A stretch of 51,509 nt of DNA from a virus (IMGVR_UViG_3300028590_000551:1-51509); one strand, 5' to 3'; shown: positions 170-43,535, counted from the stretch's first letter. The notes: a model not told the origin generated them from the letters alone. A program made the numbers and translations.

Positions 170-197
170 CTTTAACATAATAGGCATTAGCTTACGC
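170..197. other. attL: hybrid dif-like Xer site (intact XerD-type arm, degenerate phage arm)
   Basis: CTTTAACATAA-TAGGCA-TTAGCTTACGC. The left arm reverse-complements to TTATGTTAAAG, a XerD-type arm. The 15-bp core 175-189 is repeated at 43513-43527. Confidence 0.85.
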
Positions 198-204
198 GCT
201 AACC

Positions 205-225
205 ATCTGAATCTTCAGCGGTTTA
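205..225. repeat. Left copy of imperfect inverted repeat at prophage ends
   Basis: ATCTGAATCTTCAGCGGTTTA; its reverse complement matches 43455-43475 at 18/21 positions. Confidence 0.7.
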
Positions 226-243
226 CCGATACAGGAAACATCG

Positions 244-1200
244 GTGAACCCAGCTTCCCAACCATACAACGACGGGCCAGACCGCGCCCATCCTTGCAGC
301 ACTTCCCACGTTAAGCCCGCGCCTGGCGCGCCGCACGAAGCCGTGGTTTCCCCTGCATTTCGCTACCACGGTGGGAAGTTCCGCCTGTCGGGGTGGGTCC
401 AGCAGTTTTTCCCGCCACACGAGATCTACGTCGAGCCGTTCGCTGGCGCTGCCAGCGTGCTACTTACGAAGCCGCGGACGCAGGCCGAGGTCTACAACGA
501 CCTCGACGGGGACGTGGTCAACCTATTCCGTGTCCTGCAGAACGGCGAACAGCGTGACCGGCTGATTGAGGCCTGTTCACTGACGCCGTACGCGCGGGCC
601 GAGTTCGATCTAGCGTGGCAGGCCAGCGACGACCCCGTCGAGAGAGCCCGCCGCCTGGTGATCCGCGCGCAGATGGGCTTCGGATCAGCAGGTGCGTCGA
701 AAGGCACGACAGGGTTTCGCATTGACACCCGGCGCCGCTACGGGACGGCACAAGACCTTTGGCTGCGATTCCCGGAGGGACTGATGTCCGGCGCGTCCCG
801 CTTCACTGGGGTGCTGATCGAGAATCGCCCAGCGGTAGAGGTGATGCGGCAGCACGATAGCCCCGTCACGCTCCACTACGTTGACCCGCCATACCTCCAT
901 TCAACACGCGTCATAGCCAAGGGGAAGGCGGGCTATTACCGCCACGAAATGTCGGAGGCAGATCACGTCGCCCTGCTCGACGTGATCCTTGGGTTGCGGG
1001 GCGCAGTGCTGGTGTCTGGCTACCAGTCCCCGCTGTACGACGAAGCGCTGGCGGGATGGACGCGCCACACCACGAAATCACGCATCTCTGCTGGCAGAGG
1101 AACCGCGCTGCGCACCGAATGCCTGTGGGTCAGCCCGATCGCAGTCGCGGCCAGTTCGGCGCCGAAACAACAGCAGCTGGGCATCGAGGTCGGAGCATGA
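244..1200 (+). CDS. dam: DNA adenine methyltransferase (Dam/D12 class)
   Basis: FRYHGGK, YVEPFAGAASV SAM-binding motif, EVYND, and catalytic DPPY. Confidence 0.9.
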   Translation: MNPASQPYNDGPDRAHPCSTSHVKPAPGAPHEAVVSPAFRYHGGKFRLSGWVQQFFPPHEIYVEPFAGAASVLLTKPRTQAEVYNDLDGDVVNLFRVLQNGEQRDRLIEACSLTPYARAEFDLAWQASDDPVERARRLVIRAQMGFGSAGASKGTTGFRIDTRRRYGTAQDLWLRFPEGLMSGASRFTGVLIENRPAVEVMRQHDSPVTLHYVDPPYLHSTRVIAKGKAGYYRHEMSEADHVALLDVILGLRGAVLVSGYQSPLYDEALAGWTRHTTKSRISAGRGTALRTECLWVSPIAVAASSAPKQQQLGIEVGA

Positions 1201-2138
1201 AGGCACCGGCCACCCAGCTGTATTGGAAAGAGTGGGTGGGCGACATGGCGCTGGGGCGCTGTTCGCTCGCCGCCCAGGGCGCATGGGTGCGCATCCTGGC
1301 CGTGCTTCACCAGTCGGACGAATACGGGGTGCTGCGCTGGCCCCTGGCCGAACTGGCATCGGCCGCGAACGTTCCGCTGCGTTATGCGCGCGAATTGGCG
1401 ACAAAAAGCGTGCTGAAAGGCAGCGAACGTTTCGATACCGACTTCGTGCATACGCCGAGGCATGCGGGGCGTGATCTTCCTTCGGTGATTCTAGTGAAGG
1501 CAGACGGCGGAAGTTGTTGGTTTTCCGCGCGTTTTGTCCGCGATGAGTGGCGGCGAACGCAGCGCGGCGCCACCACACGCTTCACTGAAACGAACCAACC
1601 CAGCCGGTCACCGACCGGGCGGGTGGGTGAACGGCAAGGTGACGGCCCTGCTTTTGCTTCTGCTTCTGCTTCTTCAGGTATAGATAAATCTCTACGAGAG
1701 GATAGATCCCAAGAGGGCGCCGACGACCTGGCGCGCGCGCTTCGTGGAGTAGCGGGGTACAGCGAATGCGGGGCGTTCGTTCCCGAACTGCTGGAAGCCA
1801 AGGCGGCAGGGGTAACACCGGAGCAGATCGCCAACGTCGCACGCGAGAAGCAGGGCAAGTCGGTCGCCTACATCGCGCGTACCGCGATCGGTCGACAGCT
1901 GGACAAGCAGCAGCAGGCCAGCGAGGTACCAGGTGCGCCGGCAGTCGCCGCGGTTGACCCCGAGGCCAGGGCGCGAGCGGACGAACTCCGCGCCATCGGC
2001 GACCAGCTGATCGACCTGCGGCACCACCGTGACCACACGGGGATGCTCAGTGCCGACGACTACACCGAACGCGCGGCGCCGCTGCTGGCGCGGTGGCGTG
2101 AACTGCAGCCGGCCGCGGCGATGGGGGCTGCTTCGTGA
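1197..2138 (+). CDS. Putative phage replication initiator (winged-helix N-terminus)
   Basis: ATG overlaps the dam stop (ATGA). N-terminus PATQLYWKEW...CSLAAQGAWVRILAVLH resembles lambdoid replication-organiser proteins; low-complexity SASASS linker. Confidence 0.6.
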   Translation: MKAPATQLYWKEWVGDMALGRCSLAAQGAWVRILAVLHQSDEYGVLRWPLAELASAANVPLRYARELATKSVLKGSERFDTDFVHTPRHAGRDLPSVILVKADGGSCWFSARFVRDEWRRTQRGATTRFTETNQPSRSPTGRVGERQGDGPAFASASASSGIDKSLREDRSQEGADDLARALRGVAGYSECGAFVPELLEAKAAGVTPEQIANVAREKQGKSVAYIARTAIGRQLDKQQQASEVPGAPAVAAVDPEARARADELRAIGDQLIDLRHHRDHTGMLSADDYTERAAPLLARWRELQPAAAMGAAS

Positions 2139-2250
2139 TCCTCGCTTCCCATTCATTGCGCGCAAACACTGTTGTTACCCTTGGCGTGGAACATCCGCAC
2201 GGGCTGGCTGCATCCCTTGTGGCAGTAGGCGGAACCGCTGGACGCCCTCG

Positions 2251-2268
2251 CCGTGGAACGTTCCACGG
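2251..2268. repeat. Perfect 18-bp palindrome
   Basis: CCGTGGAACGTTCCACGG; further half-copies at 2185-2192, 2273-2278 and 2384-2394. Confidence 0.9.
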
Positions 2269-42027: not shown

Positions 42028-42440
42028 GCCGAGGGCATCAGGTAGTGGTGGTCACCGGCCGGCTGGGTGCAGATCCGGCAGTGAAGGCGCCACCCAGCGG
42101 CGGCATGGTGGCCGAACTGCGCGTGGCGGTCAGCGAGTCCTACAAGGATCGCGCCGGCAACCGCACGGAACACAAGGAGTGGATACGCATCAAGGTGTTC
42201 GGCCAGGCTGCGGAAGCCGTCCAGCGCTTCCTGAAGAAAGGCGGCCTAGTAACGGTGCAGGGCAGGTTGCACACCGAAAAGTGGACGGCAGGCGACGGCA
42301 GCGACCGCTACAGCACGTGGGTCTATGCCTCGCCCAGCGGCGTGGACATCCACCATCAGCCGGAACACGAAAGCACGCGGGCAGCGCACAGGGGACGCGC
42401 TGCAACGCCCGAACCGGAACCGGCCGCCCCAACCGCGTAG
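42024..42440 (+). CDS. ssb: Single-stranded DNA-binding protein (acidic tail lies beyond a TAG, to 42473)
   Basis: GRLGADP, VAVSE.YKD, EW, KG..V.V.GRL.T.KW, DRY.T. Confidence 0.9.
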   Translation: MSRGHQVVVVTGRLGADPAVKAPPSGGMVAELRVAVSESYKDRAGNRTEHKEWIRIKVFGQAAEAVQRFLKKGGLVTVQGRLHTEKWTAGDGSDRYSTWVYASPSGVDIHHQPEHESTRAAHRGRAATPEPEPAAPTA

Positions 42441-42462
42441 GACTGGGTGGACGATGACGACT

Positions 42463-43437
42463 TCAGGTTCTGACCGCCGGCAGCCGCTTGGAACGCGGGT
42501 GATGCGCAGCAGCGGTGCGCAGCGTGGTGATGTCGACGCCGAGGTAATGCGTGGTGGTGTCAGCATCAGCGTGGCCCAGCAGCTGCGCCAGCGCCATGAT
42601 GTTTACGCCGCGCTTGTGCAGTTCAGTCGCGAACGCTGCGCGCAGCAGGTGCGGGTAATGGCCGGACCACGGCCGCCCGGTGTAGGCCGCTTCCAGGCGC
42701 GCGAAGCCGCACGCCAGGCCCAAGGCGCGACGTGCATACCGGTTGACCACGACCCACACGCTGCGGCCGTCGCGGAGCGCCTTTCCATGGCGCGTCACGA
42801 ACAAGGCGCTGCGCTTGCCTGGCCGCACCGTGGCGCGCAGGCGCAGGTAAGTCTGCAGGAGGCCGTACCAGGACGGACCGAACGGCACCAGGCGGTCGAC
42901 GCCGCCTTTCCCGCGGACGTACAGGAAGCCATCGATGCGCACGCTGCCAAGTTCCAGCGTGGCCAATTCGCTGGCGCGCAGGCCGCACTGGTAAAGCGTG
43001 GCCATGATGAAGTGATCCCGAAAGCCCACGAACGTGGACAGGTCCGGCGCCGCCAGCAGCAGGCCCACTTCGTGATCCGACAGCGCCCGCGGCAATCGCT
43101 GCGGTGCACGCTTCTGGCGTGGGTAGCCATCGGGCTGCCAGGCGTCCGGATCGGCGACCTTCAGCCAGTTGAACCACGTGCGCAGGGCCGACAGTTCCAG
43201 GTTCAACGACGCCTGTTTCAGCTGGTCGCGCGTGCGCCGCGTGGCCACGTAGCGTGCCACCGGGTCCAACTCGTCGGGCACGTGCACCGCGAACGCCGCA
43301 TAGCGCGACACCGTCGCGCGGTACGCACGCACCGTCGCCGGGCTTCGACCCATGCTGCGCAAGGTGATGACGAAGCGATCCAGCAGCCGGTCAATCTGAC
43401 AATATCCGTGTCTTAGCACCACCAACGGAAATCCCAC
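42463..43437 (-). CDS. Tyrosine recombinase 3, att-proximal integrase (XerC/D-like)
   Basis: RLPRALS, RD.....LY..GLRASEL, GKGG..R.VP, PHLLR.AFAT, LLGHAD..TT..Y; adjacent to attR. Start uncertain. Confidence 0.92.
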   Translation of the reverse strand: MGFPLVVLRHGYCQIDRLLDRFVITLRSMGRSPATVRAYRATVSRYAAFAVHVPDELDPVARYVATRRTRDQLKQASLNLELSALRTWFNWLKVADPDAWQPDGYPRQKRAPQRLPRALSDHEVGLLLAAPDLSTFVGFRDHFIMATLYQCGLRASELATLELGSVRIDGFLYVRGKGGVDRLVPFGPSWYGLLQTYLRLRATVRPGKRSALFVTRHGKALRDGRSVWVVVNRYARRALGLACGFARLEAAYTGRPWSGHYPHLLRAAFATELHKRGVNIMALAQLLGHADADTTTHYLGVDITTLRTAAAHHPRSKRLPAVRT

Positions 43438-43454
43438 CCATTCAGAATAGCGGA

Positions 43455-43475
43455 TAAACCGTAGAATATTCAGAT
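43455..43475. repeat. Right copy of imperfect inverted repeat at prophage ends
   Basis: TAAACCGTAGAATATTCAGAT versus TAAACCGCTGAAGATTCAGAT (reverse complement of 205-225). Confidence 0.7.
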
Positions 43476-43507
43476 AGATGCAGAGCGTATCTAAGGCATC
43501 GCCTTAG

Positions 43508-43535
43508 CTAGTACATAATAGGCATTATGCGAAAT
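43508..43535. other. attR: hybrid dif-like Xer site (degenerate phage arm, intact XerC-type arm)
   Basis: CTAGTACATAA-TAGGCA-TTATGCGAAAT. Confidence 0.85.

Follow-up and report, generated by a model that had tools for sequence, protein, structure and literature searches.

How does a tailed phage that carries a recombinase of its own come to sit in dif, the chromosomal site of XerC and XerD, two recombinases of the host, and what becomes of dif afterwards? The question is raised by IMGVR_UViG_3300028590_000551, a one-contig virus record of 51,509 nt (hereafter the window, meaning this whole stretch of DNA). It contains a 43.4-kb tailed prophage bounded by an exact 15-bp repeat (175–189 and 43513–43527), and each copy of the repeat is embedded in a 28-bp Xer-type site with an 11-6-11 layout (arm, spacer, arm). 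Judged from the flanking DNA, the prophage host is a member of the genus Pseudoxanthomonas. Our analyses indicate that (i) the phage target is almost certainly the chromosomal dif of this host; (ii) the phage attachment site (attP) is a 28-bp half-mimic of dif; and (iii) the Xer-like tyrosine integrase encoded beside it (hereafter Int) is very probably required for integration.

Both 28-bp sites, each with the spacer TAGGCA, were found as the first-pass annotation of this DNA had described them, and head and tail genes lie between the repeats, in line with its claim of a tailed prophage of ~43 kb. On the plus strand, the left site (170–197) reads CTTTAACATAA-TAGGCA-TTAGCTTACGC and the right site (43508–43535) reads CTAGTACATAA-TAGGCA-TTATGCGAAAT. 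The shared 15-mer ACATAATAGGCATTA has only the two bordering copies in the window, even with two mismatches permitted; a chance origin of the repeat was rejected, since 0/100 shuffles contained any match. We read both sites on the minus strand and name them by their distance from the integrase gene, i.e. the distal junction (attL) and the proximal junction (attR; Table 1). The attP deduced from them consists of the left arm GCGTAAGCTAA, which is phage-specific, the spacer TGCCTA, which is identical to the host dif spacer, and the right arm TTATGTACTAG, which is XerD-type and lies on the side of the integrase gene. By this comparison, the recombination is placed within the 15 bp common to attP and dif. 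Contigs from three other samples (X1, X2 and X3) lose their match to the window exactly at 43535, the outer edge of the proximal junction.

The first-pass annotation had called the target a dif-like XerC/XerD site. It is almost certainly the genuine chromosomal dif, single-copy and placed where the polarity of the octamer GGGNAGGG converges. Empty sites have the form ATTTCGCATAA-TGCCTA-TTATGTnnnnn, with two 11-bp arms around a 6-bp spacer, and a 23-mer made up of core plus XerC arm is present in 20 of the 78 Pseudoxanthomonas genomes, once in each. On a 3.3-Mb contig (G001:C1), the sign of the GC skew switches at the dif site, between 2.17 and 2.48 Mb, and GGGNAGGG, which we take to be the FtsK-orienting motif of E. 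coli, is found 31 times forward and never in reverse in the 200 kb left of the site, against 8 forward and 43 reverse in the 200 kb to its right. The polarity of this octamer was measured in Pseudoxanthomonas, and it converges on the site in two large contigs, G001:C1 and G324:C1; in the latter, the site is found at position 2.096 Mb of 3.97 Mb. ATTTCGCATAA, the XerC arm of the target, is the same as the XerC arm of the X. campestris dif listed in the available text of PMC2731167, and the E. coli dif sequence quoted by the first-pass annotation appears in that of PMC3603311. Four genomes (G001, G048, G184 and G324) each encode two Xer matches, one a XerD match that exceeds the family cut-off and the other XerC-like.

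Relatives without the phage were compared with the reconstructed bacterial site (attB). In G377, glk, dif and GGCTGGTTGGGCGAGAT follow one another in order, a phage-free arrangement that matches the window on both flanks; glk is the chromosomal neighbour of dif on the side of the XerD arm, and its full-length copy in G377 scores 399 bits. The XerD arm of G377 differs from that of the window at one position, which leaves the reconstructed attB matched at 27/28 positions; the nearest empty sites, in G377 and G330, are each 1/28 positions off. On the empty-site check proposed in the first-pass annotation, an empty relative with both flanks exists, and the exact 28-mer was not recovered empty. The left junction gave 0 matches in exact-string scans of metagenome contigs. 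The end of glk directly abuts the XerD arm in 7/20 dif-bearing genomes of the genus. In seven other genomes of these 20 (L148, L150, L157, L159 and L162–L164), the DNA on the XerD-arm side is not glk and resembles, by eye, the reverse complement of the usual XerC-side flank, which would fit inversions around the terminus.

Filled sites are also informative. In G324, a related 44.1-kb prophage occupies dif; its integrase is 97.8% identical to Int, and 71% of the window prophage aligns to it at ~91%. The phage arm and inner flank are the same as in the window. Because the chromosomal neighbours differ on both sides, the phage must have entered dif more than once.

The att pattern is shared by a wider phage family. 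Both ends were readable in nine proviruses (the window, G324, G048, G184 and G306–G310). In all nine, the proximal junction runs from the host XerC arm through the spacer to a XerD-type arm of the phage; at the distal junction, a phage arm is followed by the same spacer and the host XerD arm. The spacers vary by host (TGCCTA, TGTATA, TGCATA, TGTACA and TACATA) and are the same at both ends in 9/9 proviruses. Across this set, the phage XerD-type arm agrees with the host XerD arm at 7–11/11 positions, and the phage left arm agrees with the host XerC arm at 3–5/11 positions only. The left arm has a consensus within each integrase clade, i.e. nnnTAARCYAA in eight phages and nCCTGTCAAAC in five loci.

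The closest deposited phage is Microcystis phage MACPNOA1 (KY697807.1), whose integrase is 49.5% identical to Int and which carries a dif-like site, ACCTAAGCCAC-TGTATA-TTATGTCAAAC, between its integrase gene and the gene that follows. When viral contigs were scanned with a 38-sequence alignment, 20 integrase loci emerged with at least 41% identity. All 15 loci with at least 500 bp upstream have an 11-nt arm, a 6-nt spacer and TTATGT in this arrangement 75–190 bp upstream of the match, against a background rate of 0.045 per kb for TTATGT; no such site was found in the other 5/20 loci, which have at most 216 bp upstream. As in those 15 loci, such a site is found in MACPNOA1, G048, G184 and G010. 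Among 301 genomes of the order, three contain an integrase match at E ≤ 1e-40, and a dif-like site is present in 3/3. In every family member with sequence available, the recombinase gene lies 71–260 bp from the dif-like site.

That a Xer-like recombinase gene stands beside att, as first annotated, is correct, and the trait is family-wide. The gene encodes a 324-aa tyrosine recombinase whose start codon is 71 bp from the proximal junction and which has 111 homologues at E ≤ 1e-30. Int scores 158.9 bits against the XerC model (cut-off 335.15) and 151.6 bits against the XerD model (cut-off 329.6), and it is 35–37% identical to host XerD and 28–30% identical to host XerC. It has a SAM-like N-terminal domain and a catalytic domain. 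The 38-sequence alignment shows R154, H263, R266, H289 and Y298 to be either invariant or conserved at 90% or more, and its consensus includes a GKG motif; the catalytic roles of these positions are those we presume from the R, K, HxxR, H and Y motifs. Int shares this two-domain build with host XerC and XerD; it lacks an arm-binding domain and has all catalytic residues.

Int is not the only recombinase of the phage. Three tyrosine recombinase genes and one serine recombinase gene, a set that the first-pass annotation did not mention, are conserved and syntenic in nine family genomes. Rec2 is present and syntenic in 9/9 family genomes compared (43–72% identity), lies 1.6–2.3 kb from the distal junction in eight integrated copies and is the first gene of the MACPNOA1 record. 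Rec3 lies in the replication module, with the RdgC gene on one side and the DnaN-like gene on the other, and is 41–58% identical in 8/8 relatives. The serine recombinase was considered as the integrase and rejected, as it is distant from att and the junctions are Xer-type 11-6-11 sites. A tree of seven provirus integrases, 12/37 other alignment rows (every third), nine Rec2, nine Rec3, three XerC and three XerD sequences, from which the G308 and G309 integrases were left out, resolves Int, Rec2, Rec3, XerC and XerD as five clean clades, with Int sister to Rec2 (support 97/90). With scores below half of the curated cut-offs and a clade of its own, Int is by sequence comparison neither a XerC nor a XerD orthologue.

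We then turned to the fate of dif. The first-pass annotation held that integration leaves two half-intact sites, which now appears doubtful. In the window, the proximal junction keeps the whole host XerC arm and the spacer, and its XerD-type arm is near-native: native Pseudoxanthomonas XerD arms vary at positions 7–11, and the XerD arm of P. japonensis, TTATGTACAAG, differs from the phage arm at 1/11 positions. G048 and G310 have a perfect dif at the proximal junction; in G048, as in G184, this junction is the only dif-like match genome-wide, and in the 4.1 Mb of G324 it is the only dif with a TGCCTA spacer. The octamer GGGNAGGG also converges there. In the window, it occurs 11:0 (forward:reverse) inside the prophage and 0:3 right of the proximal junction. 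In G324, the counts left of the proximal junction are 9:0 for the chromosomal flank and 12:1 for the prophage (21:1 in total), and right of it 0:15, so that convergence is at the proximal and not the distal junction. Over nine phage genomes, 96 copies point to the proximal junction and five point away; within a set of 42 composition-matched octamers, GGGNAGGG ranks first in frequency, and its skew is equalled by just two others, each of which includes GGAGG. Only the distal junction looks dead. It is likely, from these features, that the proximal junction is the working dif of the lysogen, and the distal junction is probably not a functional dif. We infer that the phage is adapted to sit between a chromosome arm and dif.

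How integration proceeds is less certain. Full spacer identity, the 15-bp common core and a tyrosine recombinase gene beside attP together point to a tyrosine recombination that is completed in two steps and can be reversed. The best fit is with two different binders on attP, because its arms are not inverted repeats (by eye, ~5/11 positions match in the window and L094, and 3/11 in L096), the left arm is clade-conserved and un-Xer-like, and the right arm follows the host XerD arm. We propose that Int would bind the conserved phage-specific arm, in the place of XerC on attP, and that the tetramer would be completed by the two host proteins, XerD bound to the XerD-type arms and XerC to the XerC arm of dif. 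Full spacer identity would permit both strand exchanges and hence reversal at induction. After integration, the proximal junction, to which the phage GGGNAGGG motifs point, would still serve as dif, and the host would keep chromosome dimer resolution through it; the dead distal junction, with its non-Xer arm, would prevent deletion of the prophage by XerCD/FtsK. That such a specific mixed Int/XerC/XerD complex carries out integration is a tentative suggestion, to which we give somewhat less than an even chance. More tentative again is the full picture, in which Int is a viral stand-in for XerC that recruits host XerD (and XerC on dif) into an FtsK-independent, reversible machine, in a genome shaped for the terminus by its GGGNAGGG polarity, with dif restored on one flank and a dead site on the opposite flank.

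Several observations weigh against this proposal. Conservation of the left arm could stem from an overlapping promoter instead of a binding site. Rec2 and Rec3 are possible partners of Int in place of the host Xer proteins, and the Int clade lies inside neither XerC nor XerD, so that the tree indicates neither origin. Some of the counted loci are near-identical (L090, L091 and L099; G308 and G309) and thus do not all represent independent events. The exact 28-mer attB, with the TTATGTTAAAG arm, was not found empty (nearest 27/28), and neither an excised circle nor an empty-site joint was found in the contigs of four public runs compared with 40000–45200 (best share of this stretch 0.57). Finally, a mobile unit near the terminus of Pseudoxanthomonas genomes carries another dif-like site, with CGTCGC or a similar spacer, and this site might conceivably contribute to dimer resolution. 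A predicted complex of Int with the G324 XerD (score 0.01, mark 0.32) counts neither way.

The alternative that survives best is that Int is self-sufficient, i.e. that an Int homotetramer on all four half-sites performs both integration and excision. Here dif would be merely a conserved single-copy target, used as other phages use tRNA genes, and the XerD-type arm would be kept only to leave the host a working dif. Most phage tyrosine integrases work without host recombinases, Int has all catalytic residues, and its gene stands beside attP in every relative examined. The inner CATAA is common to 3/4 arms, the fourth ending in TAA or CAA in many phages, and selection for a working proximal dif would suffice to account for the XerD-like phage arm. 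However, a single binding specificity fits poorly with attP arms that are not inverted repeats and with a left arm whose clade-specific consensus is unlike any Xer arm. We consider self-sufficiency unlikely.

We regard as doubtful, and rank next, a system of two phage recombinases, in which Int and either Rec2 or Rec3 would form a XerC/XerD-like heterodimer, one binding the phage-specific arm and the other the XerD-type arms. The asymmetric arms suggest two distinct binding proteins, Int, Rec2 and Rec3 hold conserved positions in 9/9 family genomes, and Int and Rec2, whose clades are sisters, flank attP on the circular map. Yet Rec2 precedes the packaging genes and Rec3 lies in the replication module, and either could serve circularisation or dimer resolution of the phage genome. 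No second type of site was found, an 18-bp palindrome ahead of the window's Rec2 having no counterpart in seven relatives, and a protein to bind the XerC arm of the host at attB would still be wanting. The least probable reading, and a very improbable one, is that of a classical IMEX (an integrative mobile element that exploits Xer), integrated by host XerC/XerD alone while the adjacent recombinase does another job (e.g. excision control or phage dimer resolution): a dif-mimic attP, a dif probably restored at one junction and the stacking of an inovirus are IMEX-like sequence traits, but the arm at the XerC position is unlike a XerC arm, the IMEX classes described in the available text of PMC5357621 keep the XerC side (the divergent arm of the TLCphi class being on the XerD side), and a recombinase gene lies within 71–260 bp of the site throughout the family.

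The window phage can be compared with known dif-using elements. According to the available text of PMC5357621, CTXphi and VGJphi use XerC with partial spacer homology, and in the attP of TLCphi, a Vibrio cholerae satellite phage, the divergent part is the XerD arm, the XerC side and the spacer being kept. TLCphi resembles the window phage in its double-stranded attP, partial dif mimicry, full spacer homology and single degenerate arm, and in integrating at dif and forming arrays with other elements (PMC5357621). The two are nevertheless mirror images, since in the window phage family the XerD side is kept and the XerC side diverges; moreover, TLCphi as described there has no recombinase and uses the XerD activator XafT, whereas the window phage is a 43-kb tailed phage with Int beside attP. 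CTXphi/VGJphi and the Xanthomonas phages Cf and phiLf also integrate at chromosomal dif sites of gamma-proteobacteria, Xanthomonas included (PMC2731167). They differ in being small and filamentous, with no integrase and with a single XerC strand exchange owing to partial spacer homology; the family described here has identical spacers at both ends and its own recombinase.

Large elements in dif are likewise known. The gonococcal genetic island and Legionella LME-1 have a site close to wild type and an altered one, an arrangement that stabilises the integrated form, and in the available text of PMC9765430 they are described as IMEXs relying on host recombinase(s); they are not tailed phages. 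The window and the eight related proviruses share with IMEXs a dif-mimic attP integrated at dif. The window phage departs from them in the defining IMEX trait, the absence of a recombinase, yet it is IMEX-like in the location and mode of its insertion. In G306, a 6.4-kb inovirus with a rolling-circle Rep and a Zot-like assembly protein (L121, G306:C1, 158–6565) stands in tandem with a tailed prophage of the family at the same dif and has its own dif-like half-sites as borders. This arm pattern would be the one expected from sequential integration into an active site. An association of phages with dif was foreseeable, because PMC2731167, in its available text, reports dif sites flanked by phage proteins in 10.9% and by transposase or integrase genes in 14.2% of cases. 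In the literature searched, which did not cover most subscription journals, only non-tailed elements and no tailed phage at dif with its own recombinase were found.

MACPNOA1 shows the same order of integrase, attP-like site, Rec2, and packaging and head genes as the window. It differs in having been deposited as a free linear phage genome, with its recombinases annotated only as 'XerD' or 'integrase'. Its G+C content is 68%, and its relatives in our data are prophages in Xanthomonadales-like genomes. The G+C content of Microcystis is low. The recorded cyanobacterial host of MACPNOA1 may be wrong. The spacer of its attP-like site, TGTATA, is as in gamma-proteobacterial dif sites given in the available text of PMC2731167 and PMC3603311.

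Hijacking of dif has so far been studied in small recombinase-less elements, i.e. filamentous, microvirus-like and tailless phages, satellites and islands. The window phage belongs to a whole family of ordinary-sized tailed temperate phages at dif with a Xer-like enzyme of their own. The family is a natural system for asking whether a foreign recombinase joins or replaces XerC/XerD on dif, how a cell tolerates 43 kb inserted where FtsK must find dif, and how unwanted Xer excision is avoided. If Int is indeed a stand-in for XerC, an FtsK-gated dimer-resolution machine would become an FtsK-independent, reversible integration and excision machine for a 43-kb tailed phage. A practical rule for prophage borders also follows, namely to look for a dif half-site beside a Xer-like integrase gene, and our results suggest that a gene annotated 'XerD' near dif in a Xanthomonadales genome is often that of a phage integrase.

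The remaining gene content (Table 1) identifies the prophage, by homology, as a temperate tailed phage (Caudoviricetes) with a siphovirus-like architecture; no tail sheath was found among the 23 phage open reading frames (ORFs) scanned, a scan that was not exhaustive. The ORF at the terminase position matches 0 families in Pfam and PHROGs. Other prophage genes encode RdgC, a DnaN-like protein and a single-strand DNA-binding protein, and there are two DNA methylases in total.

Table 1. Positions of the att sites, host flank and prophage genes in the window
Feature	Position	Strand	Evidence and remarks
Glucokinase (glk) 3' end, host	3..152	+	NF009073 4.9e-17 on a 49-aa fragment
Integrase-distal junction (attL)	170..197	-	GCGTAAGCTAA-TGCCTA-TTATGTTAAAG: phage-specific arm, spacer, host XerD arm
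Left core repeat copy	175..189		Crossover region: 6 nt of XerD-type arm, 6-nt spacer and 3 nt of the other arm
Prophage body	198..43507	+	43.3 kb; nearly all genes on + strand
D12-class adenine methyltransferase	244..1200	+	PF02086 9.6e-15; first gene past attP on the side opposite the integrase
Rec2, second tyrosine recombinase, 393 aa	2434..3615	+	PF00589 2e-32
Terminase-position large ORF	4737..6614	+	Named by position only; 53–78% identity in 8/8 relatives
Portal fused to MuF-like minor head domain	6811..9012	+	phrog_30703 6.8e-43; phrog_115 6.3e-21
Major capsid protein (weak)	10946..12052	+	PF25209 1.3e-4, under the curated cut-off; kept in 8/8 relatives
Tail tube protein	13734..14729	+	PF18906 2e-25; phrog_290 5.8e-29
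Tape measure protein	15562..17934	+	phrog_26084 8.6e-32
J-like central tail fibre	22092..24713	+	phrog_31 3.8e-106
Serine recombinase (resolvase domain)	28657..29856	+	PF00239 5.9e-35; 33–70% identity in 8/8 relatives; distant from att
Rec3, third tyrosine recombinase, 331 aa	34161..35156	+	PF00589 4.1e-17; PF02899 4.3e-9
Single-strand DNA-binding protein (SSB)	42024..42440	+	PF00436 2.6e-25; last gene ahead of the integrase
Int, Xer-like tyrosine integrase, 324 aa	42463..43437	-	PF00589 1e-20; PF02899
Integrase-proximal junction (attR)	43508..43535	-	ATTTCGCATAA-TGCCTA-TTATGTACTAG: host XerC arm, spacer, phage XerD-type arm
Right core repeat copy	43513..43527		Second of the two window copies

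Other dif-like sites occur near the chromosomal dif. A mobile unit occupies 43553–45135 of the window, starting 17 bp right of dif; its end, GAGGGTCGGCAGGGATTCGTGAG..., abuts unrelated DNA in eight other loci (in Pseudoxanthomonas, Stenotrophomonas, Xanthomonas nasturtii and Castellaniella). The unit carries an SseB-like gene (43953–44756) and ends in a second, inverted dif-like site, ACTTCGCATAA-CGTCGC-TTATGTAAAAC (45108–45135), within which similarity to Stenotrophomonas loci breaks exactly at the boundary between XerC arm and spacer (45118/45119). By its sequence features it looks like a dif-module or transposon hybrid. The CGTCGC site was considered as the phage target and rejected, as it moves together with a mobile unit that other genera also contain. 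A third dif-like site, AGTTCGCATAA-CATCCG-TTATGTATAGC, lies ~2 kb from the chromosomal dif in L026 (G005:C21) and in G377 (G377:C26:31528-31548). Ahead of the L026 copy stands the context ...ATAATATAATCAATAACTT that also precedes the CGTCGC site, and the G377 copy is a pattern match only. This suggests a family of mobile units carrying Xer sites with differing spacers.

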